From Clostridia bacterium (GTDB lineage Bacteria; Bacillota; Clostridia; TANB77; CAG-465), in NCBI GenBank assembly GCA_045536565.1, contig JAZSNU010000013.1:32001-96000 (forward strand): DNA of 64,000 nt. Reading direction: 5' to 3'. Positions 32,497 to 56,798 of the stretch are shown here, piece by piece; position 1 is the stretch's first letter; each line of letters opens with the position of its first letter. A program made the translations under genes and the position numbers. Under the pieces are notes generated by a model that made no database searches, had not been told where the DNA came from, and saw only the letters and a program-made list of their open reading frames with translations.

Positions 32497-32865
32497 TTAT
32501 TTCCTATTAAAATTTATTATATAAATTCCGTTTTTTTGTTCTAGATTTGAAATATATGGCTTACTATATTCTTCTCTTGTTAATTCTATACTATCAGAAC
32601 AATTCTCGCTTACACATACATCTACCGATTTATCATTTTCATATTTATCAATAGTATTTTGTACATCTATTCCATAAAATTCTGTGTTTGAATCTCTATA
32701 TTTATCAAATTCATCTAGTCTACCTTCAAATGTAATATTTGTTTCCGCTGTTTGTTTGTATAATTGCTTTATTTCTGAAAATTCAAAAATAACAACTGTT
32801 ACTATTAACAAAGTGACAAATATTGATACTCCAATCACGACTGCCTTTACTGCAATTTCATCCAT
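32497..32865 (-). CDS. Small minor pilin-like protein
   Basis: MDEIAVKAVVIGVSIFVTLLIVTVVI N-terminus paralogous to the major pilins; FDKY...G.DV motif. Confidence 0.7.
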   Translation of the reverse strand: MDEIAVKAVVIGVSIFVTLLIVTVVIFEFSEIKQLYKQTAETNITFEGRLDEFDKYRDSNTEFYGIDVQNTIDKYENDKSVDVCVSENCSDSIELTREEYSKPYISNLEQKNGIYIINFNRK

Positions 32866-32917
32866 GTTATACTTCTTCCTCCTAACAAAACATTCTCAAC
32901 TTTTATTATATTAAAAG

Positions 32918-34852
32918 TTAAAAATTATTTTTCCAAGCCTCGCTATTGAAATTTTTATACCCTTCATCTGCTAACTTCGCATTAGCAGCAGCACTAGGAT
33001 AAATCCCGATATTATTATTAAAAAATGTTATATATTGATTTGATTCTATCTTTCTAATTCTAACGTATCCATCACCATTGTTTTGAAAATTTACTGTTTC
33101 CTCAAAAGAATTATCTAACGGATCTCTCATTTGTTCAGAACCTCTTTGTGCTCTTGTATCTCTATGCTCTGGTGAAACATCTCCCGGGTTAACCCAAGAA
33201 TACGAATTACCATCCCACAAATTAATAATATTCTTCCAATGGGCTGTCTTTGTATTATATTTCAAATGCTCTATTTGATTTAAATAAGCAGCATATGTTG
33301 ATTCAACTAAACCCGGTAATGGATATACTGTACTATTATTTGAAAAAGCAAACTCCGTTTCTGGCCAAAGATATGAAAGTCCTCCGCCGCCACCAGCATT
33401 TGGGTCATGTGAAGCACCACCACCATAGTAACCTCCGCCGCCACCACCGGCGCCATCTACTGTTGCATTCCCACCTTGTAAAAGGCCGCCTTTTTCAACA
33501 GCTGGTACTCCATCATACCCAACAGATATAGTTGCAACCCCAGCGGTAGCTCCAATTCCTTCATAACTAGAAGATGCAGGTTTTCCATTTCCGGCACCTC
33601 CAAAATTTCCTCCATCTCCGCCATAACCATTATTTGATTTACTACTACACCCGCCGCCACCACCAGCGACCATTATTCTCGTAAGAAGGGATGCAGTATC
33701 CTTTTCGGTTTCTCCCTTTATTAATCTTATGTCTGTGGCTCCTCCGCCACCATATCCGCCATATGAATTTCCTCCTCCGTTGTATCCACCATTTTCGGTA
33801 TTACCAGATGAATATAGAGTACCTTTTCCGCCTATATACAAATATATAGTAGTATCTTTATGAACATAATAATGTGTTTTTATATATGCTCCAAAGCAGT
33901 AGTTTAGTCGTCTTGTTAGATCATCAGGATTTCCAAAATAATTAGTAGTAGAAGGATAACCGCCAGATGCTCCCCATAATTCTATTTCATATACATTTCC
34001 ACCTTCTAATGTAACTTCTTGAACATCGCCAGTATAATAATACACACTTCCTAAATCTGTTTTAATATAACCATTATTAATCACACCATCATTGTTTACT
34101 GTCCCGCCATATTCAACAAATATTTTAGCTACATCGTCTGATCCAACATTAGCTGTCAACATATTATATAAAACACCTGCCATAGTTTTATTCGAATTTT
34201 TAACAGTAACAATTATTTTGTCACCTTTATTCATAACATATGAATTTTCGTTTTTATATGCATTAGAAATATATGTATCTATTTCTCCTAATCTACACAA
34301 TCTCAAAAATTCTAATTTAGTAAGTCCAGTTCCCCTAAAAATTCTTTCTACTATTTGTTTATCAGAAATTATCTCTTCATTTATAGCTTGCGCTGTTTCT
34401 ATAAGCCAAGGCCCTGCATCATTGAAATAATAAATTTCTGTTCCTACGTGTAATGCCGAGTCACCATCTAGATAATCATCTATATATTTTTCATAATCTA
34501 GAATCATAGAAACTTTCCCTTTTTTGTATGCATTGTTTTCAATTACGTAATTTCCGCTATTATCTTTAAGCTTTTCATAAATATAAATCACGGGGTCATA
34601 TCTTTTTTTTACATGTTCTAGCGTGATTTCATACGAATTATTTGTAGCATATACTCCTGATACAAATTCATTGTACATATCGGGCGAAATATATCCTTTG
34701 TTTGTAGCATTATCAACAAAATTTTGAGTTATTTTTAGTACTAAACTATATGATATGTCATCTATTTTCTCAAATGCAACATATATAGGTACTATAAACA
34801 AAACCAAAACACCTACTATAGCTGATATTATTTTTTGTAATGAAGATTCCAT
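32918..34852 (-). CDS. Minor pilin-like protein with glycine-rich (ALK/LTK-type Gly_rich) domain
   Basis: Pilin-like N-terminus; YEIELWGASGG, GGYNGGG...GGGGATDIRL, RIMVAGGGGG, GGGGGGYYGG. Confidence 0.75.
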   Translation of the reverse strand: MESSLQKIISAIVGVLVLFIVPIYVAFEKIDDISYSLVLKITQNFVDNATNKGYISPDMYNEFVSGVYATNNSYEITLEHVKKRYDPVIYIYEKLKDNSGNYVIENNAYKKGKVSMILDYEKYIDDYLDGDSALHVGTEIYYFNDAGPWLIETAQAINEEIISDKQIVERIFRGTGLTKLEFLRLCRLGEIDTYISNAYKNENSYVMNKGDKIIVTVKNSNKTMAGVLYNMLTANVGSDDVAKIFVEYGGTVNNDGVINNGYIKTDLGSVYYYTGDVQEVTLEGGNVYEIELWGASGGYPSTTNYFGNPDDLTRRLNYCFGAYIKTHYYVHKDTTIYLYIGGKGTLYSSGNTENGGYNGGGNSYGGYGGGGATDIRLIKGETEKDTASLLTRIMVAGGGGGCSSKSNNGYGGDGGNFGGAGNGKPASSSYEGIGATAGVATISVGYDGVPAVEKGGLLQGGNATVDGAGGGGGGYYGGGASHDPNAGGGGGLSYLWPETEFAFSNNSTVYPLPGLVESTYAAYLNQIEHLKYNTKTAHWKNIINLWDGNSYSWVNPGDVSPEHRDTRAQRGSEQMRDPLDNSFEETVNFQNNGDGYVRIRKIESNQYITFFNNNIGIYPSAAANAKLADEGYKNFNSEAWKNNF

Positions 34853-34861
34853 CAATACCTC

Positions 34862-35281
34862 CTAAAATCTAAAAGTTGCTATTATTTTTTCTTTATTCCC
34901 CTCTATCTTTTTTTCTAAATCAAAGAAATAATTTGGTCTTATATTGCTATCACGAACTATTGTGTTACTTGTTGAATAATAATCTGTATTATCAAATATT
35001 AGTTTTTTATCATTAATTTTATCATCAACCGACATGTATACAGTAACAACATCATCGTTCCAATAATACTCCATCAGATGTCTAAGATCTCTTCCCGTTA
35101 TTAGTTCTGATTCAAGTATAGTATCTATATATTTCTTATCCGCATTTGCTATATCATGACGATTAGCCATAGTAGCTGTACTTTTTGCTGTATCATAGAA
35201 GTTTATAATTAAACTTATAGTTATAATCGAAACAAAAACACTTACCCCTATAAATACAGCCCTACTTGCATTTTCATCCAT
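34862..35281 (-). CDS. Small minor pilin-like protein
   Basis: Start moved to MDENASRAVFIGVSVFVSIITISLII (ATG 35281, AAGGTG RBS); ITGRDL motif. Confidence 0.7.
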   Translation of the reverse strand: MDENASRAVFIGVSVFVSIITISLIINFYDTAKSTATMANRHDIANADKKYIDTILESELITGRDLRHLMEYYWNDDVVTVYMSVDDKINDKKLIFDNTDYYSTSNTIVRDSNIRPNYFFDLEKKIEGNKEKIIATFRF

Positions 35282-35371
35282 ATTTATCACCTTTTTATAC
35301 AATTAAATTTTACCATAAAACAGGCTTAAAATATATGTCTCAAAGTATATGTAATATAAATATATTTAATT

Positions 35372-35458: not shown

Positions 35459-35595
35459 TTATGCGCAAAATATCAATTTTGCAAAAACAACACAGCTGGT
35501 TAACACACGAGTTATTTACCGTGTTTAACATATATGTACATATATCTAAACAAAAGATATATTGAGATAAATCTATAAAAATTAAAGGAGGAAAA
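35459..35595 (+). promoter_or_regulatory. Conserved structured leader of pilin A
   Basis: Aligns with 38279-38412 (- strand); conserved hairpins, 16-bp palindrome ATATATGTACATATAT (35530-35545), AAAGGAGG RBS. Confidence 0.65.
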
Positions 35596-35677
35596 GATTA
35601 TGGATAACGCTCAAAAAGCAATTATGATTGGTGTTGGTTTATTTATAACAATCATTATTATTTCAGCAGTACTATTA
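35596..35677 (+). repeat. 82-bp perfect inverted repeat, left arm
   Basis: Identical by manual comparison to the reverse complement of 38197-38278. Confidence 0.92.
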
Positions 35678-36121
35678 ATAGTTAATCTAGGTACTGATTT
35701 AATTGACGAATCAACTGCAAAACTTGATTCAATAAGTTCATCACTACAAGGGTCATTAACAGAAAATTATGATGGTAAAATAATGACTGGATCTCGTGTA
35801 ATAAATGCAATAAAAGAATATGCAAATGGTGGTGAAGTTTCAATTGTTCTTTATAACAAATCGAATGTAGCAGTAGCTTGGACAGGTGCAAAGAAAATTG
35901 GAGATTTAGCTGATGTTTCTAAAATAGGTACTACAGATGTTAAGTTAGCTAATGATTCAACGGGTTTGACAGATTGGGCTGGTGATAAAACTAATTTAAG
36001 TGATTTTTCAAATAATACAAAAGGAGAGGTATATGTAAACCCATCTAAACAATACAAAGTATCAGTTGTAAGAACATCTGCTGATGCAGTTGTAGGAATT
36101 GTATTCCAACCAGTAGCCTAG
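35600..36121 (+). CDS. Major pilin-like protein A (antisense to the operon)
   Basis: MDNAQKAIMIGVGLFITIIIISAVLL; NYDGKIMTGSRV; YVNPSKQY; paralog of 37696-38274. Confidence 0.8.
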   Translation: MDNAQKAIMIGVGLFITIIIISAVLLIVNLGTDLIDESTAKLDSISSSLQGSLTENYDGKIMTGSRVINAIKEYANGGEVSIVLYNKSNVAVAWTGAKKIGDLADVSKIGTTDVKLANDSTGLTDWAGDKTNLSDFSNNTKGEVYVNPSKQYKVSVVRTSADAVVGIVFQPVA

Positions 36122-36135
36122 CTAATTATTATTAA

Positions 36136-37658
36136 AAGTTAATAGTGGGGTGCGGATAACTAAAAAGTTATGGCTGTATAATTTAGGTTGGGGTGTGTAA
36201 AAACACTTCAACCTTTTTATTGCATAAAAATTGCAATTAAATCATTTTTACCTTAAAATGTAGTTGATTAGAAAACAAAGAAAGGTTTTGGTGATTTAAT
36301 TGCGTAAAAATGATATAACAGATTTCTTTAATTTGCAAGAGGTTAAAGTAGATTTTCATAAATGTTCTAAAAGTTTAATTGAACTTTGGATTAAATGTCC
36401 TGTTAAGGAACATATTTGTCCTGTTTGTAATTCTTCTACTTCTCGTATACACGACTACTATACTCGTTCTTTTAACCATATTAAAGTTGGTCAAAAAACT
36501 ACTAGGATATATTACAAGCAGCGCAGATATGTTTGTTTACATTGTGGTAAAAGATTTGCTGAGAAGAATACTTTTATACAGAAATTTTACAGGCATTCCA
36601 ATGATGTTGTTAATACTGTATTTGATCAACTTACTCAGATTCGTAGTCTCTCTCAGATAGGCTATGATAACAATATGTCTGCTCAAAATGTTTCTAGACT
36701 TATGAATAAATTTATGCCTATCTTTCATAATACTACTTCTCTTCCAGAAGCTATTGGTATTGATGAATTTAAAGGTAATGCTGGTGGTAACAAATTTCAA
36801 GTTTATATTACTAATCTTAAAACTGGTAAAGTTATTGATATTATCTCCGCCAGGTCAGAAGATGCTTTGTATAATTTCTTTAGAAAAATTTCTAATCCTA
36901 AAGATGTTAAATTTGTTGCTATGGATTTATCTCTTTTCTTTAAAAGTATTATTGCAGACATTTTTCCTAATGCTAAAATTATTGCTGATACTTTTCATTT
37001 TACTAGACTTATGCATTGGGCCTTAGATAATGTTAGAAAAGATGTTCAAAAAGGATTACCAAAAGATATGCGTATCTACTTTAAACACAGTAGATATGTT
37101 CTTCACAAAAGAATTATCGACTTAAATCCTGATCAATATCATCAACTTACTAATATGCTTGATTACAATGAAAATCTTAGATGGGCTTATTCTATTGTTC
37201 AAAACTTGTTTGAGATTATTGATGAAAAAAATCCTGGTAAGAAAGTTACTCTTTTTAAAGAGTTTATGACATATGCTAGCAATTGTGACTTGCCAGAATT
37301 TAACAAACATATTCAAACTTACTTTAAATGGCATAAATATATTATCAATTCTTTTTATACCAACTATTCTAATGGTATTACAGAAGGTTTAAATACTAAG
37401 ATTAAAACTTTAAAAAGAGTTTCTTTTGGATTTAGAAATTTTCAAAACTTTAGATTAAGAATTTTAATGGCTTGTTCTTAAATCTAATATATTAATTTGT
37501 TTTAATTAAATTAGCCGTTAGGCTTGCGTTAGCATGCCCAAAAATATATATTTCAATTACTTTTTAAGTGTATTAACACTGCATACCTAAAAAGTCCATA
37601 AAAAGTGAGATGCAGATAACTTTTTAGTTATCCGCACCCCAACTATTGACTTAGAGTC
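36136..37658 (+). mobile_element. ISL3-family insertion sequence
   Basis: Perfect 25-bp inverted repeats GGGGTGCGGATAACTAAAAAGTTAT (36147-36171 / 37616-37640), extended by imperfect matches, enclosing a transposase. Confidence 0.85.
36300..37481 (+). CDS. ISL3-family DDE transposase
   Basis: CPVC...C..CG zinc finger, IGIDEF, VAMDLS, DTFHF, SNGITEGLNTKIK.LKR..FGFRNF; intact frame. Confidence 0.93.
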   Translation: MRKNDITDFFNLQEVKVDFHKCSKSLIELWIKCPVKEHICPVCNSSTSRIHDYYTRSFNHIKVGQKTTRIYYKQRRYVCLHCGKRFAEKNTFIQKFYRHSNDVVNTVFDQLTQIRSLSQIGYDNNMSAQNVSRLMNKFMPIFHNTTSLPEAIGIDEFKGNAGGNKFQVYITNLKTGKVIDIISARSEDALYNFFRKISNPKDVKFVAMDLSLFFKSIIADIFPNAKIIADTFHFTRLMHWALDNVRKDVQKGLPKDMRIYFKHSRYVLHKRIIDLNPDQYHQLTNMLDYNENLRWAYSIVQNLFEIIDEKNPGKKVTLFKEFMTYASNCDLPEFNKHIQTYFKWHKYIINSFYTNYSNGITEGLNTKIKTLKRVSFGFRNFQNFRLRILMACS

Positions 37659-37695
37659 TAAATTCTGTATATTTTTTAACTTTTGAATTAATATA

Positions 37696-38274
37696 TTATG
37701 CTGATGGTAAAACAGTTATATCACTAGTTCCTACAAGATCAGAAGGTATAAATATTACTCCAACCATTGCATCACCGTCTACACGAATTACATAAGCATT
37801 GTATCTTGCACTAGTATTTACATAAGTAATTCCTGCAAAATTAACATCAGTAAATCTAGTCATAGCAATAGTAGCAGCATCATCTGAGTTTGTATAATGA
37901 TCTGAGCTGATTTCAGCAGTTCCATCAACAGGATCGATTGTTATTTGTATATCAGCACCATTAGCTTGACCAGCTAAATTTCTAGCACCAACACTTGCAA
38001 CAGAATTTCCATCATCATTAACTAGAACTATTGATAGGTCTGTTGCTGTCATGTATTGTTGTATAGCACCTCTTACTTGTGTTCCTGATACTACTTTAGC
38101 ATCATAGTTTTGTAATATTTGGTTTTGTAATGATGATGACATTGAACTTAAATTACTTGTTGCGTCATCAACTAATCCAGTACCCAAGTTTACTACTAAT
38201 AGTACTGCTGAAATAATAATGATTGTTATAAATAAACCAACACCAATCATAATTGCTTTTTGAGCGTTATCCAT
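37696..38274 (-). CDS. Major pilin-like protein B (co-oriented with the operon)
   Basis: ATG 38274; first 26 residues identical to pilin A, divergent C-terminal domain; NYDAKVVSGTQV, YVNTSARY. Confidence 0.8.
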   Translation of the reverse strand: MDNAQKAIMIGVGLFITIIIISAVLLVVNLGTGLVDDATSNLSSMSSSLQNQILQNYDAKVVSGTQVRGAIQQYMTATDLSIVLVNDDGNSVASVGARNLAGQANGADIQITIDPVDGTAEISSDHYTNSDDAATIAMTRFTDVNFAGITYVNTSARYNAYVIRVDGDAMVGVIFIPSDLVGTSDITVLPSA

Positions 38275-38278
38275 AATC
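38197..38278 (-). repeat. 82-bp perfect inverted repeat, right arm
   Basis: Reverse complement identical to 35596-35677. Confidence 0.92.
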
Positions 38279-38412
38279 ATTTCCTCCTTTTATTTTATAG
38301 ATTTCTCTCATATATATCTTTTGTATAGATATATGTACATATATGTTAAACACGAGATATATTCGTGTATTAACCATTTTGTTTTTTTGTGCAAAAATGC
38401 TATTTTGCGTAA
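38279..38412 (-). promoter_or_regulatory. Conserved structured leader of pilin B
   Basis: Entire tadBC-pilin intergenic region; 29 bp (38326-38354) identical to 35520-35548. Confidence 0.65.
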
Positions 38413-40473
38413 TTACATTGCACCCATTTGAGTAAAGTATGTTGCCATTTGCATTATACTTACTATCATTAGTGGCCCAACGAAATATCCTGCTACAAGA
38501 ATAATCATAGGTGTAAAACCAATTGCTTTTCCCATTGCAACTTTCTTCTGTATAACCCTTTCGTTTGCCTCTTTTCTTTTTTCATAGTAAAAGTTTCTTT
38601 CAGTTTCTAATTCATCAAAAGCCTCTCTTACTGGTATTCTCTCAACTGCTGAAAGTAATCCATCTACTATTCTCTTAAAATCTTTATTTGGTACTCTGTC
38701 TTTAAGTTCTTCTAATGCTTCTGATGCTCCTGCTTCATAATTGTTAAGCGCTGTTGCTATTGCATCTTTAAAAGCATATGAATATCTTTCAAGCCATTCT
38801 AATATCGTTTGTACATCAACTCTTTCTATATACATAAGCATAAGAATAATTGATTGAAATTGCATTATTTCATTTTCTTTTTCCATTTCTCTCATTTTGT
38901 TTCTAACAAACATTATGACATCTGGTACAAAATACGCAATAAATCCAACTCCCAATGATATTATTAATTCCCAATATTTCAAGTATATCCCTTGAACTTG
39001 TGTTACTTTGTTATATATTCTATCAACTTGTTCCTCTGTTGCACTACCTTCTTTTGCCTCTATATCAGCCTTAATTTGGTCTTTTGTTATTTTAGAATCT
39101 CCTCTATATTCTTCTACATACACCGCATCTTGCTCTGCCATAAGATTTGCCGCTGCCTCATCTTCTTCTGAAAGCTTACCAAGTTCTAAAAACTCGTCTG
39201 CTATTCCAGTAAATACAGCATTAAAATCTATGTGATGCATATTTAGTATAAGTGTAAGTGAAAATACAAAACCAATTAATGCCGCTGCGACTTTATTTAC
39301 ATAAAACCACTCTAATGTCAAAAATGCGTTTGTGTTTTTTATCATTTCCGTTTTCTTTTTTCGCTTGGTAGTGTATTCTGCTGGTATTAAACCATCAACT
39401 ATCTTTCTTACTAGTGGAATAGAATATGCTCTATCTTGCCACTTTTTAGTTGCTATCCTATCAAATTTTATTTGATCTGAATCTTCTCTTATTACTCTAA
39501 GAGCAAAATAACAAACAAATATTGATATAAGTATAAGTGCTTTTATTATAAAGCCAAAGCTACTGTTGTAGAAGTTTATAAGTGCTGCAAAATTGCTCTC
39601 AGCCCAACTTTGTATAATATTTGTAAAGAATATTGGTGCTACTGCAATTGCTGTTAAACTTCTAAACATATAATTAATTTTATCTCTTTTTAATATTTCA
39701 AGATATACATCATTAACTATATTATTAAGATTCTTTAAATATATTGATGTACCGTCTACTTTTCTATCTCCTAGTTCCATAGTAAGATACGAAACACCTG
39801 CAAATAGTTTTAAAAATCTATTTGGTGCAGTATCATAATATTTTTCTAATTGAACTTCTGGATTATCTGCAAGTATTGCCTCTTTTATTCTTTTTACTTG
39901 TGGTGTAATTTCTTTATCTTCAAGTTCATCAATAGCATCATTAAAAGCCTCTTCTATCATTCCATGTTCATGGAATGAGTGTCTTATTTCAGTAAACACT
40001 TCTGGTATCTGTCTTAATATCTTATCTGCAACTCCATTAACTCTGTAATTAGTTATTACCTCATTAACTAAAAGAACTGCAATAATTACTATAAGTTGCA
40101 TGTATAAATCGTTCGTAACATTTATAAATATAAATAGTGCTACAAATATAAATATTACGGATGAAAGCATTATACTTCCTGTTTTTCTTCTTATTTCATA
40201 TTCAGTATAATCGTTAACCATTTCAAGTTTCAAACGAACTTTTCTAGTATAGTATTTAACAACTGGTATTGATATACATATTATATAAAATGCTTGATAT
40301 ACTCTATCGAATATATCTGAAAAACTAGTTTTTTTCTTTACAACAATCTGATCTTTTTGGAAAAGAGCACTATTTTTTTTATATTTTTTCTTCATCATAT
40401 TAAAATATATTAATAATGCTGCCATTCCTACAACAGAGAACGCGACTAAACCAATTGCTATATAAACTATCAT
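38413..40473 (-). CDS. Fused TadB/TadC-like (T2SS-F-like) pilus platform protein
   Basis: Two repeats of TM pair plus cytoplasmic helical domain; directly downstream of the assembly ATPase. Confidence 0.7.
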   Translation of the reverse strand: MIVYIAIGLVAFSVVGMAALLIYFNMMKKKYKKNSALFQKDQIVVKKKTSFSDIFDRVYQAFYIICISIPVVKYYTRKVRLKLEMVNDYTEYEIRRKTGSIMLSSVIFIFVALFIFINVTNDLYMQLIVIIAVLLVNEVITNYRVNGVADKILRQIPEVFTEIRHSFHEHGMIEEAFNDAIDELEDKEITPQVKRIKEAILADNPEVQLEKYYDTAPNRFLKLFAGVSYLTMELGDRKVDGTSIYLKNLNNIVNDVYLEILKRDKINYMFRSLTAIAVAPIFFTNIIQSWAESNFAALINFYNSSFGFIIKALILISIFVCYFALRVIREDSDQIKFDRIATKKWQDRAYSIPLVRKIVDGLIPAEYTTKRKKKTEMIKNTNAFLTLEWFYVNKVAAALIGFVFSLTLILNMHHIDFNAVFTGIADEFLELGKLSEEDEAAANLMAEQDAVYVEEYRGDSKITKDQIKADIEAKEGSATEEQVDRIYNKVTQVQGIYLKYWELIISLGVGFIAYFVPDVIMFVRNKMREMEKENEIMQFQSIILMLMYIERVDVQTILEWLERYSYAFKDAIATALNNYEAGASEALEELKDRVPNKDFKRIVDGLLSAVERIPVREAFDELETERNFYYEKRKEANERVIQKKVAMGKAIGFTPMIILVAGYFVGPLMIVSIMQMATYFTQMGAM

Positions 40474-40477
40474 TTAA

Positions 40478-42391
40478 TCACCCCCATGCTGTATCTATGA
40501 ATTTGTCAAAATCTTTCATGTCTTCTGGTGACATATTCTCTCTCATTGCTTTTATATTTTCTTCACTTATTGGATGAACCATTACATATTTTCCATCTCT
40601 AAACTCAACTATGTTATGATATTCATAGTTTGCTGTTTGTGTCATATGTCTAAAATACTCAGTGGCATTATCCATAAACGCTGTCCATTTATCTTCCATT
40701 GTCTTTTTATTTCTATAATTTTCGTTATAATTAAATGTTTTTTCCTTAGGTACACATTCAGTTATTCTTTCTATATACCTAGAACCATCTACACCTCTTT
40801 TTAAGTGTACATCAAAGTTTATAACATTAACAACTTGCACTTCTGCAACATCTTCATCATTAAACATTCCTATTTTTAAAAGTGAGTTTCTAAGCGCTGT
40901 TATCAAGTTAGGGAAAGTTTTAGCATGGTGAGTAAATAGCGTAAACTTAGATGCAACCTGTGCCATTTGTATCATCCACGCAGCAACCGGATCAGTTGCA
41001 ACCTCTCCTAGAATGTTAACACCACCATCTGTCTTTTTCTGAACATCAAGTCCCATTTGACCTGTTATTGTTTCAGTCTCTCTTAAAGACAAGATGTTGT
41101 TATGTGGATATATTTTTCTTAAATGCAACTCGAATGCTGTTTCTTGTACCCTGATTGTTATTGTAGGGTAGATATATTTCATTATTGCCATAAGCAATGT
41201 AGTTTTACCACAACCTTGCTCACCAGTTATTGCTGTTACCCTTGCTCCTCTGATTAAGAATTTAAGCATTTGTATAACTGGTTCTTTACCTTCGTGTGTT
41301 AATAATTGTTCTGTATTAAGTAATGTTGGTGGAGCAAACTTTCTTACGAAGAATGCCCAAGATTCAGAAAAGTTTGGTCTTAAAACAACTACACGGGAAC
41401 CATCTTTCATTTCGTTAATTTTGAAACCAACTGATTCTGAAAGTTGTCCAGGGTTATTATATTTGTATATGTTCTGACAAACTCTTTTAAGTTCTGACTC
41501 TGACCCAAATGATAAGAACGATAAATACATTGCTTTACCTTTATAGAATACCCAAACTGAATCATAAGACATTGGTATGTTTATCTTTCCAGTAGCATCA
41601 AGGTATTCTTCCATATCACCTACTTGATCAAGGAATGACGGAGGTATACCAGATACACCACCAGATACACCATCTATATTTTGGTCTCTAACCTCATCTA
41701 TAACACTGTATCCTTTATATCCTTGATATACTCTTTGAACAACAATTTCTAATTTATCATCAAAACTCAGTGTTATGTTTTCCATTTGCTCATTAAATAT
41801 TTTATCTATTTCTTCTGCTGTTACCACATATGATGGAACATTAGGGTCATACTCGAATTTAGGAACATCCAGTTCATATTCAGTAACAATTTGAGAAAAT
41901 GCATTATTCCCATATTTTTTCTTATATTCATGAAGTAATATTTCAAATTTATCTTGCGCCGTTAGTTTTTCGTAATTATCAAAATTTATTGCGTAATTTA
42001 TGTTTTTCGAATTTACTTTATAGTTATTTGATAAAAGATCAAACATTAAGGTTTTAACATACTTTTTATCACTAGAATCTGCATATGCTGCACCTTTTAA
42101 AGCCTTTTTAAGCTCATATTTTGTATTTTTTCTTCTTTCAAATTCATCTTCTGAAAGAGCTAAATCATACAAATTCATTCTTGTTATTTCATCAAATTGA
42201 TTTTTTATATAATCAGTTAACCCTTGCAAATTATATGCAAGTCTTTCTCTTTCTACTTCACTAACCTCTGCCGTTTTCTTTCCACCTTTTGCTAAAGAAT
42301 ATATAGCTAGTACAACAAAAGCAATTATTACAACTATAAGTATAAAGTTTATTATAAAAGTTGTTGACACGACATTAGCTCCTCCTTTCAA
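40478..42391 (-). CDS. TadA/CpaF-like pilus assembly ATPase
   Basis: Walker A GEQGCGKTT, E.AFEL Asp box, ILGEV Walker B, FTHHAKT His box, DGSRVVVLRP...FFVRKF; N-terminal TM. Confidence 0.85.
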   Translation of the reverse strand: MKGGANVVSTTFIINFILIVVIIAFVVLAIYSLAKGGKKTAEVSEVERERLAYNLQGLTDYIKNQFDEITRMNLYDLALSEDEFERRKNTKYELKKALKGAAYADSSDKKYVKTLMFDLLSNNYKVNSKNINYAINFDNYEKLTAQDKFEILLHEYKKKYGNNAFSQIVTEYELDVPKFEYDPNVPSYVVTAEEIDKIFNEQMENITLSFDDKLEIVVQRVYQGYKGYSVIDEVRDQNIDGVSGGVSGIPPSFLDQVGDMEEYLDATGKINIPMSYDSVWVFYKGKAMYLSFLSFGSESELKRVCQNIYKYNNPGQLSESVGFKINEMKDGSRVVVLRPNFSESWAFFVRKFAPPTLLNTEQLLTHEGKEPVIQMLKFLIRGARVTAITGEQGCGKTTLLMAIMKYIYPTITIRVQETAFELHLRKIYPHNNILSLRETETITGQMGLDVQKKTDGGVNILGEVATDPVAAWMIQMAQVASKFTLFTHHAKTFPNLITALRNSLLKIGMFNDEDVAEVQVVNVINFDVHLKRGVDGSRYIERITECVPKEKTFNYNENYRNKKTMEDKWTAFMDNATEYFRHMTQTANYEYHNIVEFRDGKYVMVHPISEENIKAMRENMSPEDMKDFDKFIDTAWG

Positions 42392-42402
42392 TGATATATT
42401 GG

Positions 42403-43218
42403 CTATAAATCTCTAATCTTTGATATTTCCATTATTTTCTTAACAATTTTTCTTACTTCGCTTATAAAGTAACCATTGTAATCTCTTGCATCTGCTTTCG
42501 CATTTTTATAAAAGAAATCAATAGCGGCACCATCGTTACAAGCATCCATAAATATATAATTATGCGGAACCGCAAATATTGGTGTTTTTGTTTTATATCT
42601 ACCTTTTATATTAAACAAATTGCATTTTGATTTATTCTCATAATCACCAATAACAATAATTTTGTTTTTATCTTTTATATATTCATTTTTCTCAATTTCT
42701 TCAAAAAACTCATCTAATCTTGCAATATCTTGATTAATAGTACATACTAACAAATCTGCATCTTCTATTACTTCCCTTACATAATCATTAATAGTTCCTT
42801 TTGGCAAATCTACAATTGCAAAATCATAAGCCTCATCTGCTTTTCTAACAATAGCAGGGAATGTTTCAGATAGAGATACAAATTGTTCTCTTGTTGTTAC
42901 ATTCGTACCATACATAATATCCAATCTTTGCTTTAAAACTGGTTTTGCATAGTTTCTTATACTTTCAGGTGTTAGTTTGTTGCTATCAACCAATCTAGAT
43001 AAAGCAGTCATACCTATGTTAGAATTAGAAAATATATTCATATTTTTTAATTGATCATAGTCTGTAAAAGAACTCTCAATTTTTCTTGTTTGCCAATGTG
43101 CATGTAAAAGTATTGCGTTTATATCTTCTTCCATTCCCATAAGAGTACTTACTGCTATCGCTGCATGTGTATTTCCTGTCATTCTTGAAACTGGGCTCCA
43201 AAACACTATTTTAGGCAT
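42403..43218 (-). CDS. Degenerate ParA/MinD-like (TadZ/CpaE-like) protein
   Basis: IVFWSP...TGNT deviant P-loop; YDFAIVDL; ADLLVCTINQD. Confidence 0.65.
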   Translation of the reverse strand: MPKIVFWSPVSRMTGNTHAAIAVSTLMGMEEDINAILLHAHWQTRKIESSFTDYDQLKNMNIFSNSNIGMTALSRLVDSNKLTPESIRNYAKPVLKQRLDIMYGTNVTTREQFVSLSETFPAIVRKADEAYDFAIVDLPKGTINDYVREVIEDADLLVCTINQDIARLDEFFEEIEKNEYIKDKNKIIVIGDYENKSKCNLFNIKGRYKTKTPIFAVPHNYIFMDACNDGAAIDFFYKNAKADARDYNGYFISEVRKIVKKIMEISKIRDL

Positions 43219-43220
43219 AT

Positions 43221-43946
43221 TTATCTATTCCTCCTACTACCGTTTTTTATTTCTCTTTTCATTTCATTAGATGTTACATCTTTTAAAATATCCGAACTAA
43301 TTTCTGCAACCAAATTAACAAACATCTTAGTATGCTTCATTATATCAATGATTCCACTATGTTGTGCCTCTATATCAGCAATTCTATCTTGATCTTCATA
43401 ATTTAATTCATACATGTTTTCGTTCCATTCAATTGCAAAATTTATTAGTTTATTTTCATAATAAACTTCACTTGCTCTTGTTATATAATATTTAAATAAA
43501 ACTTTCGTTAATTCTAACTTCTTATCTAGTGGTTTATATATCATCATTGTTTTAAGAAGCTCTGAATTTTTAGACATAGAAATATTTGAATATTCTACAA
43601 AGAAATATGTTTTACTTATTCCTCTTGCTCTAAAATTTTCATAAGCGACAGGATTATCTATATCAAGAAGTATATAATCATATAAAGCTATATTTAACTC
43701 TCTTTTGCAAATGTAATTTTCTACATCATGCATATTTTTAAATCCAACTGCAAAATCAATAGAATCATATTGGGTAATATACTCTTTTTCCTTAACTGAC
43801 AAAGAAGGTATTGTGTATTTCATTCTTTCTTCAACAGTTCCATCTATAACTAAAACTGTTTTCCCTGTATAATTTATTGCTTTTGCTAGATTTATAACAA
43901 AATCCGTTTTATTAACATATCCTGCTAGTGCAATTACTTCTTGCAT
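43221..43946 (-). CDS. Degenerate ParA/MinD-like protein
   Basis: G.VNKTD...NLAK...GKTVLVIDGT; YDYILLD. Confidence 0.6.
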   Translation of the reverse strand: MQEVIALAGYVNKTDFVINLAKAINYTGKTVLVIDGTVEERMKYTIPSLSVKEKEYITQYDSIDFAVGFKNMHDVENYICKRELNIALYDYILLDIDNPVAYENFRARGISKTYFFVEYSNISMSKNSELLKTMMIYKPLDKKLELTKVLFKYYITRASEVYYENKLINFAIEWNENMYELNYEDQDRIADIEAQHSGIIDIMKHTKMFVNLVAEISSDILKDVTSNEMKREIKNGSRRNR

Positions 43947-43967
43947 TTTATCCTCTCCTTAATATAA

Positions 43968-45155
43968 TTACTGTCCTAATGTTTGATTTCTTAAAGCTTG
44001 TTGTGCTGATATTTGACTAGATAATCCAGAAACTGCTGCTTGATATCCATCTCCACTTGCAGTAACGAATTCTGCCATGTTTGTTTCTATCTGCATTCTA
44101 ATATCGGCACTTAATTTAGCCTTTGCTTCCTCTGCAATATATTTATTGTTTTCCATATGTCTTCTTATTATATCGCTTGGTTGATATGTTCTTTCAACCA
44201 CATCATAAGATTCAATATAATATCTATATTCAATTGCATATTTTAATAATAAGTCAGTTAAATTATTTGTGAAATTAATATACTCTTGTGTTGTTTCTTC
44301 TTTTTTATCATCTTTGTTTTCATCAGCAGAATTTTCAGTATTAATATCTGTCTCAACATCTTCTTCTACTTCACTTGTTACATCTTTTGCAACTTCATCT
44401 GGTACTGATAACGCAACTGTTCCATCTGCAACATCTTTTTCTATTTTTTCTACCAAGTCTCTTTTGGCTATGTCTGTAATACTAACCTGGTTTCCATCTT
44501 CGTCAATAATAAAGTCTCCTACTTTTATTTGTGTTGCTGGATCTACATATCTAACACCATAAAGTTCCGAAGCACCTTCTGACAGATACACATCGACAAT
44601 AGCGCTGTTTAAATAGTATAAGTTTTCTTCATCTAAATACAAGTCAATAGCATTACCAGTAATTTTTCTAACTTTTATTTGTGGAATTACAATATACTCT
44701 AAACCACTTGCCATTTTCATTTTTATATCTATATATTCACCCTCAACTAATCCTGATGGTAACTTTACAGATGTTACTTCTTGTATTCTTTCATCAACAG
44801 TAACAACTTCATCTCCAAACATACTTCCAACCAATGGTATATTTGCTGGTATATTATATTTAGCTATTTTGCCTACTGCTCCATACCCAATAAGATTTGT
44901 AGGAGATGAACTAATATGAACTCTTGCAGATGTTAACATATCATCTGTAATTGTTTCACCTTGAATAACATCTCTATTTAGCATTACAACCTCTGTTGTG
45001 TAATTTGCTATATATTCTTCATTTGTCCCCTCTTTATATGAATTTACAACACTAATTGACCATATAAGAGTTATTGCAATACCGATTATTCCTATACCTG
45101 CGCCAATCAATATTCCGTATATTAATCTCTTTCTTATTTGACTCATTCCTATCAT
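43968..45155 (-). CDS. SAF-domain (RcpC/CpaB-like) pilus assembly protein
   Basis: TM then VVMLNRDVIQGETITDDML...VGKIAKYNIPAN (SAF) and LPSGLVEGEYIDI; start moved to ATG 45155 behind GGAGG. Confidence 0.75.
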   Translation of the reverse strand: MIGMSQIRKRLIYGILIGAGIGIIGIAITLIWSISVVNSYKEGTNEEYIANYTTEVVMLNRDVIQGETITDDMLTSARVHISSSPTNLIGYGAVGKIAKYNIPANIPLVGSMFGDEVVTVDERIQEVTSVKLPSGLVEGEYIDIKMKMASGLEYIVIPQIKVRKITGNAIDLYLDEENLYYLNSAIVDVYLSEGASELYGVRYVDPATQIKVGDFIIDEDGNQVSITDIAKRDLVEKIEKDVADGTVALSVPDEVAKDVTSEVEEDVETDINTENSADENKDDKKEETTQEYINFTNNLTDLLLKYAIEYRYYIESYDVVERTYQPSDIIRRHMENNKYIAEEAKAKLSADIRMQIETNMAEFVTASGDGYQAAVSGLSSQISAQQALRNQTLGQ

Positions 45156-45183
45156 ATGTACAACCTCCAATAATTCTCTTAAA

Positions 45184-45212
45184 ATAATATCGTATTTAAG
45201 TTGTATTTTCAA
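45184..45212 (-). promoter_or_regulatory. Putative sigma-A promoter of the Tad-like operon
   Basis: TTGAAA-17 bp-TATTAT. Confidence 0.55.
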
Positions 45213-45253
45213 CACATTTTTTTGAAATAACAATGTCTTTAACTAAAATATAA

Positions 45254-55742: not shown

Positions 55743-56798
55743 CTATTCTTCAATATCTTCTAGTGAATCATCATCTTGTTCTTCCATTTCACCTAAGCTT
55801 TTTTCAAAAGCAAGATTGAAATTATCTCTAACCTTCTTTTCAATTTCCTTCATAACTTCTGGATTATTTTTCAAATAAGTTTTAGCCGCTTCTCTACCTT
55901 GACTAATTTTTTCTCCATTATATGAGAACCAAGCACCCGCTTTATTTACTATATCAAGATTTACTGCTAAATCAAGTACGCATCCTTCTGATGAAATACC
56001 TTCGCCGTATACTATATCAAATTCTGCTTCTCTAAATGGTGGTGCAACTTTGTTTTTAACAACTTTAACTTTTGTTCTTGTACCCATAACTTCGCCATTT
56101 ATTTTTATAGCTTCTTGTTTTCTAACATCTAATCTAACTGATGAATAGAATTTTAAAGCTCTTCCTCCTGGTGTTGTTTCAGGATTTCCAAACATTATTC
56201 CAACTTTTTCTCTCAATTGGTTAATAAATACAGCAACTGTTTTTGATTTAGAAAGTACACCAGTTAATTTTCTTAAAGCCTGTGACATCAATCTTGCTTG
56301 AAGGCCAACATGTGAATCTCCCATTTCACCATCGATTTCTGCTTTTGGAACAAGTGCTGCAACTGAGTCTACAACAATTATATCAATAGCGCCACTTCTT
56401 ACAAGTTGTTCTGTTATTTCAAGCGCTTGCTCACCTGTATCTGGTTGAGAAACTATTAAATTATCTACATCTACACCTAATTTTTTAGCGTATACCGGGT
56501 CTAATGCATGCTCGGCATCAATAAAAGCGGCTACCCCACCTAGTTTTTGTGCTTCTGCAATCATATGTAATGATACTGTTGTTTTTCCTGACGACTCTGG
56601 TCCGAATACTTCAATTACTCTTCCTCTTGGAACTCCACCAATACCTAATGCTATATCCAAACTTAATGCACCAGTAGGAATAGAATCTACATTTACACTT
56701 CCTACCTCTCCTAATTTCATTATTGCACCTTTCCCGAAATTCTTTTGAATTTGTGACATTGCCACATCTAGTGCTTTTTTCTTTTCTTCTGATATCAT
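55743..56798 (-). CDS. recA: Recombinase A
   Basis: [47 protein letters not shown]. Confidence 0.99.

Follow-up and report, generated by a model that had tools for sequence, protein, structure and literature searches.

Convergent pilin genes with inverted 5′ ends

The window analysed here is a 64,000-nucleotide (nt) stretch of a genome from the order TANB77 (CAG-465; genome G000, 1.13 Mb in 22 contigs), with a base composition of 29% G+C. It lies on contig C14, where window position equals contig position minus 32000. Within it, two pilin genes converge beside the assembly operon of a putative Tad-like pilus. Pilin A (35600–36121, plus strand) encodes 173 amino acids (aa). Pilin B (37696–38274, minus strand), which has the same orientation as the assembly operon, encodes 192 aa, or 194 aa from an alternative ATG at 38280, six bases upstream. 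A sequence-only reading of this DNA had described a perfect 82-bp inverted repeat inside the two genes, and this was confirmed: the core of arm A (35596–35677, plus strand) is the exact reverse complement of the core of arm B (38197–38278, minus strand), with no mismatch over 82 nt. By chance, about 2 × 10−35 such inverted pairs would be expected in the window.

The core consists of 4 nt before the ATG and 78 nt of coding sequence (codons 1–26), and the first difference between the genes falls at coding nt 79 (Ile/Val). Identity between the two proteins is 46% overall and is almost wholly confined to the N-terminal third. The variable part of pilin A is only 30–34% identical to all compared copies, and is the most divergent globular part among them. 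Inverted homology is also found 5′ of both ATGs, for about 135 nt. It comprises a 243-nt block of 78% identity that contains the perfect core (35578–35820 / 38054–38296), and two further blocks, I2 (35513–35562 / 38312–38361, 92%) and I3 (35464–35510 / 38363–38409, 79%).

Pilin B, the assembly genes (38413–45233) and the downstream pilin-like genes (32497–35302) all lie on the minus strand. Pilin A is the only gene of the locus on the plus strand, in agreement with the earlier statement that B alone is co-oriented with the operon. The upstream neighbour of pilin A diverges from it across a 297-nt intergenic region. Pilin A would therefore need its own transcription from that region.

Leader sequences of the two pilins

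Both pilins have their own ATG, their own AAAGGAGG ribosome-binding site and their own homologous leader of ~135 nt. The leader of pilin A forms the upstream part of arm A (35464–35599, plus strand) and includes the I2/I3 homology to 38312–38409. The corresponding part of arm B (38279–38409, minus strand) occupies the spacer up to the stop of the platform gene (38413). The leader includes an invariant 25-nt block and a promoter-like TGTACA-17-TATAT(T/A) pair, which in arm A reads TGTACA-17-TATATT (35535–35563, by consensus match only). A consensus promoter scan of this AT-rich region gave 27 matches against 22.7 expected, which is not above chance. The TGTACA / TATAT(T/A) block occurs in the arms of G000 and of two related genomes, G003 and G005, and is absent from the short spacer of two others, G001 and G002.

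RNA folding of both leaders with the first 90 nt of the genes indicated no unusual structure (z = −1.25 and −1.50); RNA structure therefore does not explain the nucleotide conservation. A conserved imperfect palindrome (GTTAAYACACG ... CGTGTTTAAC) lies upstream of every major pilin copy, at 35500–35545 and 38329–38374 in the window and also in G003, G005, G001 and G002. After it, the species with an inverted pair carry a self-complementary ACATATATGT, repeated twice. This block could be an operator or a 5′ stem-loop.

The convergent layout in related genomes

In G005, where the locus is fully assembled, the order is operon, pilin 1 (185 aa, plus), a 142-aa pilin-like gene (plus), pilin 2 (180 aa, minus) and minor pilin genes. 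Its arms are 352 nt long with 95% identity; 272 nt of them match perfectly, of which 131 nt precede the gene and 141 nt are coding. The same 50-nt terminator-like repeat follows each pilin. In G003, an operon-side and a distal-side contig both end inside the arm, and the stretch that they share is exactly 141 nt, the assembler word size. Of the five other species in the genus, at least one (G005) thus has the convergent layout, and G003 is probably a second. Only one pilin is present in G001, and G002 has one assembled copy, 143 nt from a contig end; the spacer is short in both. Between the major and minor pilin genes of G001, a 271-aa protein is encoded (L025 5259–6074); a GGDGT motif, spotted only by eye, suggests that it is NAD-kinase-like.

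The perfect identity might in principle stem from a repeat that was collapsed or misjoined during metagenome assembly, given that G000 is split among 22 contigs and the assemblies of its relatives break at the same place. We find this scarcely credible. The perfect stretch of 82 nt is shorter than the 141-nt assembly word at which the G003 contigs break, neither gene is disrupted, and on either side of the perfect core the arms diverge. Moreover, the separately assembled G005 and G003 share the architecture.

A wider survey covered 74 loci from species representatives, 67 of which carried the strict N-terminal pilin motif. Two or three tandem pilin copies on one strand were found at 12 of the 74 loci, and four loci ended at a contig end inside the pilin gene. 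An inverted second copy within 4 kb was found at only one, L037, with pilins of 185 aa (plus) and 180 aa (minus), equal to the G005 layout. From this distribution, the inverted arrangement is peculiar to one subclade of one genus. A search of 41 genomes with pilin A gave matches in 28, counting G000 itself; of the 24 genomes from the same family, 23 had one; the major pilin of G004 was not found with pilin A as query.

An ISL3 element between the pilins

An insertion sequence (IS) of the ISL3 family, ~1.49 kb long, lies between the two pilins (36172–37658, plus strand). Its ends were placed by homology to copies in the genomes G144 and G023 and by end alignments, and it is present as a single copy in G000. 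The 393-aa transposase (36300–37481, plus strand) matches Pfam DDE_Tnp_ISL3 (E = 7.7 × 10−66) and Zn_ribbon_ISL3 (E = 8.9 × 10−11). These two domains, the length of ~1.5 kb and the GGCT-type terminal repeats are all shared with the ISL3 family, for which GGCT is the usual terminal start. Here the terminal inverted repeats are imperfect, beginning GGCTGT and GACTCT.

The element departs from its family in two respects. An 8-bp target-site duplication is an ISL3 family trait, and none was seen at the ends of this element, which are flanked by AAAGTTAT and TAAATTCT. In addition, an extra, inverted copy of the sub-terminal right end abuts the left end. This fragment of 36–37 nt (36136–36171) is an inverted repeat of 37616–37652 with 95% identity, and the pair contains a perfect 26-nt inverted repeat (36146–36171 / 37616–37641). 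The end fragment, with no target duplication, suggests either the remnant of a second copy or a rearrangement upon insertion. The 26-nt repeat was also considered as a duplicated pilin terminator, a possibility that was rejected because homology to IS copies in other genomes places the right-hand repeat within the element.

The sequence-only reading had named the internal transposase as one candidate catalyst of inversion. The ISL3 transposase is a DDE transposase. The ends of the element (36172 and 37658) bear no relation to the arms. Moreover, the pilins of G005 converge in the same way although no IS is present there, its 142-aa pilin-like gene being in the counterpart position. A role as invertase was rejected on these grounds, and the ISL3 element is therefore a passenger.

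Contigs C26 and C34 of G003, C18 and C41 of G004, and C50 and C68 of G129 start inside copies of the same ISL3 element. The element is therefore multi-copy in these genomes, and breaks their assemblies.

Significance of the identity between the arms

The absence of synonymous differences between the arms had been noted previously, and the first 26 codons are indeed identical. As a sign of recent exchange, this observation did not hold up. Over coding nt 1–82, A and B differ at 0–1 positions, and the G005 and G003 copies differ from them at only 1–2. Because the 82 nt are as close to the copies of other species as A is to B, their perfect identity is no evidence of recent exchange within the genome.

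Tandem paralogues from other genera (18 pairs at 12 loci) were 78–100% identical in their first 90 nt. Since tandem copies are incapable of inversion and yet are this alike, a near-identical start is no specific mark of inversion. The upstream regions of the tandem pairs showed ungapped identities of 0.32–0.63; in the inverted pairs, identity over the upstream 60 nt was 0.73 (window) and 1.00 (L037). Duplication of the leader is thus confined to loci where co-transcription of the second copy is impossible, which fits two independent transcription units.

Concerted evolution was examined in the genomes with inverted pairs. The arms are perfect over 272 nt in G005 and over at least 141 nt in G003, and species-specific variants are common to both arms. 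The arms of G005 and G003 are thus homogenised within their genomes. For the window this can be said only in part, its 82 nt being equally near to those of other species.

Evidence for a possible inversion of the interior

A scan of metagenomes for the arm pattern returned two loci, L029 and L030, and a scan of viral contigs returned none. L030 belongs to a G002-like strain and is uninformative on flipping. L029 (1,088 nt) comes from a G005-like strain in another sample. It starts in the 3′ end of the 686-aa platform gene, where it is identical to the operon flank of G005 at 321 of 330 positions. After the arm, it is identical at 375 of 402 positions to the distal pilin 2 of G005, against 222 of 376 for pilin 1. 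Beyond the shared terminator, the last 11 nt agree with the pilin-2 side at 8 of 11 positions and with the pilin-1 side at 3 of 11. L029 is the junction predicted if the interior were inverted relative to G005. Replacement of a cassette is another possible origin, though the 11-nt tail would argue against it.

The variable parts of the pilins, or heads, were compared across the genus. Pilin B was identical to G005 pilin 1 at 57 of 124 positions, and to G005 pilin 2 at 38 of 128. A single lineage (57/124, 76/129 and 69/131 identical) unites the operon-proximal heads of G000 and G005 with the heads of the G001 and G002 pilins. The distal heads are each far from all others, at ~30% identity.

A static inverted duplication, which has never inverted, would account for several of these results. 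Under this explanation, likeness is maintained by constraint on the leader and helix and by non-reciprocal gene conversion, and L029 is either a chimera or a locus whose head was replaced by conversion or transfer. Non-invertible tandem paralogues keep their 78–100% identity, proximal heads are conserved by position, and L029 is a short contig that spans a long stretch of perfect repeat. The conserved 5′ and 3′ repeats that bracket each G005 pilin could also guide cassette replacement. The tail of L029 fits this less well, since it lies on the pilin-2 side, where it would not be expected had the conversion stopped within the repeat. Conversion between inverted repeats should also bring inversion crossovers, as described for the tuf genes (PMC6735719). 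We consider a static duplication possible and rather unlikely.

Recombination machinery and proposed mechanism

A recA gene lies within the window (55992–56777, minus strand; G000:C14:87992–88777; PF00154, E = 2.5 × 10−143). No match to PF00589, PF00239 or PF01548 (tyrosine, serine and Piv-type recombinases) was found on contig C14, consistent with the earlier statement that no dedicated recombinase lies in the window. In the whole G000 genome, Phage_integrase (PF00589) gave three matches, none of them on C14 and one of them interrupted by a stop; neither Resolvase (PF00239) nor the IS110/Piv-type family (PF01548) gave any. With recA present and this outcome of the recombinase search, homologous recombination is the simplest mechanism. 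Of the catalysts suggested previously, recA was thus found in the window, and the transposase was set aside. Should the arms recombine, RecA would be the likely catalyst; the action of a trans-acting recombinase on them is possible.

Taken together, these data suggest that the locus holds inverted paralogues, derived by duplication of a complete major-pilin expression unit, that are in concerted evolution and undergo occasional, largely silent, RecA-driven inversion. We think this explanation probable. The arms correspond to the shared leader and the N-terminal membrane helix that all pilin-like proteins here need, and the globular heads are hypervariable. Likeness of the arms would be kept by selection on the N-terminus and by recombination between the copies, and probably also between related strains. 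Crossing-over by RecA within the arms would flip the 2.5-kb interior, including the inserted ISL3 element. Such a flip has probably already happened in a sister species.

A crossover would place leader B with head A beside the operon, and leader A with head B at the distal position, the two leaders being equivalent (they are identical in G005). As both products would be complete and equipped with a leader, the flip would not act as an on/off or either/or switch. At most, it would determine which head receives read-through from the operon. We infer that each leader has promoter activity and that both pilins are co-expressed.

The sequence-only reading had proposed instead that a ~2.7-kb flip switches the pilin. 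Parts of that proposal are borne out: the arms are real, the layout recurs in relatives, and the L029 junction was found. The switch itself is not, because the flip leaves two complete genes. A programmed version would have the arms used at high frequency, with either a recombinase acting in trans or selected RecA activity as the agent, so that the flip sets the dominant head. The perfect inverted core within two pilin 5′ ends, the retention of the layout in G000, G005 and probably G003, the unusually slow synonymous change in the arms across three species and the flipped junction in L029 would all suit such a switch. Moreover, ‘Pilin’ and ‘CpaF family protein’ annotations are reported as enriched among predicted gene-altering inversions, with odds ratios of 8.4 and 4.2 (Table 1 of PMC9881135). 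Nevertheless, neither gene is truncated, each has a leader and ribosome-binding site of its own, and the gene–pseudogene asymmetry and single upstream part are missing. The contig carries no recombinase gene, and G000 has only the three tyrosine recombinase matches, one interrupted by a stop, with the serine and Piv-type families not found. The proximal heads form one lineage, which is unexpected if orientation were frequently randomised. A programmed switch is therefore improbable.

Several observations weigh against inverted paralogues in concerted evolution with occasional inversion. The first concerns codon usage. Among G000, G003 and G005, identical codons encode identical amino acids at 25–26 of the 27 positions in codons 1–27. 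The background of codon identity is 0.65–0.67 for the 686-aa gene and 13/24 for a minor pilin N-terminus. In codons 28–86 of the same pilin gene it is 28/43, which differs from codons 1–27 (Fisher P = 0.002). Gene conversion within one genome would not explain such conservation of the arms across species, which is real and coincides with the very subclade that has the inverted pair. An order-wide codon constraint was rejected as the cause, as most of the first 27 positions show synonymous variation among 71 loci of the order. Our preferred guess is recombination between strains or species through the constant 5′ end, and a bolder guess is selection on the arms as recombination substrates.

The second concerns orientation. 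L029 or the G005 assembly could be chimeric, since a single contig runs through a repeat that is perfect over 272 nt in G005. The comparison of orientation across relatives, as had been recommended, yielded one flipped junction (L029 versus G005). In G000 and G005, the two species with a complete assembly of the locus, it is the B-type head that lies next to the operon, so that flips must be rare or one orientation preferred. Public sequencing runs added little, the best match containing 0.18 of the sampled words. Runs X1, X2, X5 and X6 gave only short Logan contigs, mostly from relatives of the IS, and none bridged an arm. A 239-nt contig from X6, identical to 38247–38485, ends inside the arm and is uninformative on orientation. 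A record from X2 joining 35661 to 38213 via a 21-nt palindrome at depth 2.2 was read as a fold-back artefact. Lastly, the promoter function attributed to the leader elements is argued from conservation and consensus only.

Comparison with known systems

In Moraxella bovis and M. lacunata, tfpQ and tfpI are switched by Piv inversion, where one promoter and 5′ end lie outside the segment, the alternative 3′ part is promoterless, and piv is adjacent. The present locus resembles that system in having two oppositely oriented pilin variants with repeats in the conserved 5′ coding part. It differs in that neither gene lacks any part, and a search of the genome gave no member of the Piv/IS110-type family. 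The logic of the Moraxella system, to which the sequence-only reading had appealed, requires one expression site and promoterless alternatives. It does not carry over to a pair in which both genes have an ATG, a ribosome-binding site and a leader.

Gene-altering programmed inversions more generally have been described as showing gene–pseudogene size asymmetry, a single upstream part and truncated alternatives (Milman et al., NAR 2023, PMC9881135). The window locus shares with them the placing of inverted repeats within the reading frames of genes for variable surface or specificity proteins. It is symmetric, unlike the systems in that account, and resembles the starting state proposed there, in which switches begin as an inverted duplication and one copy later loses transcription.

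The inverted tufA and tufB genes of Salmonella offer a closer parallel. They are reported to undergo concerted evolution through RecA-dependent exchange; up to 50% of events give an inversion, which leaves both genes whole (PMC6735719). There, as here, two complete inverted paralogues, which at the pilin locus too would be separately expressed, are homogenised by homologous recombination, and inversion swaps promoter–terminator pairings and destroys neither gene. The tuf genes lie 761 kb apart and are alike throughout, whereas the pilins are 2.5 kb apart and alike only in the leader and first 26 codons.

Frequent flipping would make the locus an uncommon, symmetric kind of gene-altering inversion, and possibly a precursor of the asymmetric switches. 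If flipping is rare, these are ordinary inverted paralogues in concerted evolution. On a more adventurous view, to which we give little credence, selection acts on the arms as substrates for recombination in a symmetric cassette that inverts. The near-invariance of the promoter-bearing leader and first 26–27 codons across three species of one subclade would then reflect regular flips, which reassign the operon-side head and act as a dosage switch with no dedicated recombinase nearby.

The surrounding pilus cluster

A conserved Tad-like pilus cluster of the uncultured gut order TANB77, comprising proteins 927–938, has been described by Kim et al. (Nat Commun 2024, PMC11680825). It is reported to encode CpaB, TadZ, CpaE, a 640-aa TadA and a 693-aa TadC/TadB fusion, followed by pilin-like proteins. 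The same paper presents the cluster as essentially exclusive to TANB77 and links it to cancer immunotherapy responses. Judged by gene order and sizes, the window locus matches this cluster. The order 421, 241, 271, 637, 686, 192/173, 146 and 645 aa fits Table 1 of PMC11680825.

Next to pilin B, a gene at 38413–40473 (minus strand) encodes a 686-aa membrane protein, putatively a platform of the TadC/TadB-fusion type from its size and position relative to protein 931 of PMC11680825 (693 aa, eight transmembrane helices, TadC plus TadB by structure in that account). It has no Pfam or NCBIfam match, and its closest named Protein Atlas cluster is TadB (score 0.87, a lead only). The adjoining gene (40478–42391, minus strand) encodes a 637-aa TadA/CpaF-like ATPase, comparable to protein 930, with matches to T2SSE (E = 0.0015) and the TIGR03819 TadA family (E = 2.1 × 10−7) that are both below their cut-offs. 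Three genes at 42403–45233 (minus strand) encode proteins of 271 aa (CpaE-like by position), 241 aa (ParA/MinD-like, TadZ-like) and 421 aa (SAF domain, CpaB-like), with weak CbiA and SAF matches. Their order and sizes are those of proteins 929, 928 and 927 of PMC11680825.

On the other side of the convergent pair, downstream proteins of 146, 645, 122 and 485 aa share the pilin-type N-terminus. The 146-aa pilin-like gene (34862–35302, minus strand) has an N-terminus of the form MDE..A..IGV followed by a hydrophobic helix, as does the 122-aa gene (32497–32865, minus strand). The 645-aa protein (32918–34855, minus strand) has the same type of N-terminus and a glycine-rich domain (ALK_LTK_GRD, E = 2 × 10−35). 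By size and position it corresponds to ‘pilin 938’, which was tested on dendritic cells in PMC11680825.

The window and the published cluster thus both have CpaB, TadZ, CpaE, an ATPase of ~640 aa, a fusion protein of ~690 aa, pilin-like proteins of 140–240 aa with a single N-terminal helix, and then a pilin-like protein of 620–650 aa. In both, the pilin-like proteins have no recognisable sequence family. The published representative has its pilin-like genes drawn along one cluster, and neither ‘orientation’ nor ‘paralog’ appears as a word in the text of PMC11680825. In the window, G005 and G003, by contrast, the first pilin and its leader are duplicated in inverted orientation, and the window also has an ISL3 element between the copies. 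The inverted, leader-bearing duplication with the ISL3 insertion is a new arrangement of an already published pilus cluster. As that cluster, from an uncultured order, has been linked to immunotherapy responses (PMC11680825), variation of its exposed pilus subunits is of practical interest.

Fold and family of the pilins

Neither pilin A nor pilin B matched any Pfam or NCBIfam family. An AlphaFold2 model of pilin B, built from 42 sequences, had a predicted local distance difference test (pLDDT) score of 81.9, with a helix at residues 3–57 followed by a beta-rich domain. The modelled topology, with a short N-terminus, one hydrophobic helix and a folded outer domain, is that of the general type IV pilin shape. 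Foldseek comparison of pilin B with the PDB gave nothing at E ≤ 0.001, and in VIA-align the long helix alone was matched (Z = 6.4). No Flp-type motif, which is a glycine followed by a glutamate–tyrosine pair, was visible in the pilin N-terminus. In the Protein Atlas, pilin B fell in unnamed Bacillota clusters only.

A total of 796 pilin homologues were found at E ≤ 1 × 10−5, and most of the 120 clusters listed at 90% identity had a single member. From these comparisons, the first, major-type pilin is hypervariable and often multi-copy. Over the whole window, the strand composition is strongly asymmetric (T 39.9%, A 31.4%, C 17.2%, G 11.5%), and in the region from 27.5 to 46.6 kb the long open reading frames are nearly all on the minus strand. 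A third, longer pilin paralogue lies outside the window (G000:C21:29075–29704), in an open frame of 488 aa that shares 51% identity with pilin A over its first 90 residues.

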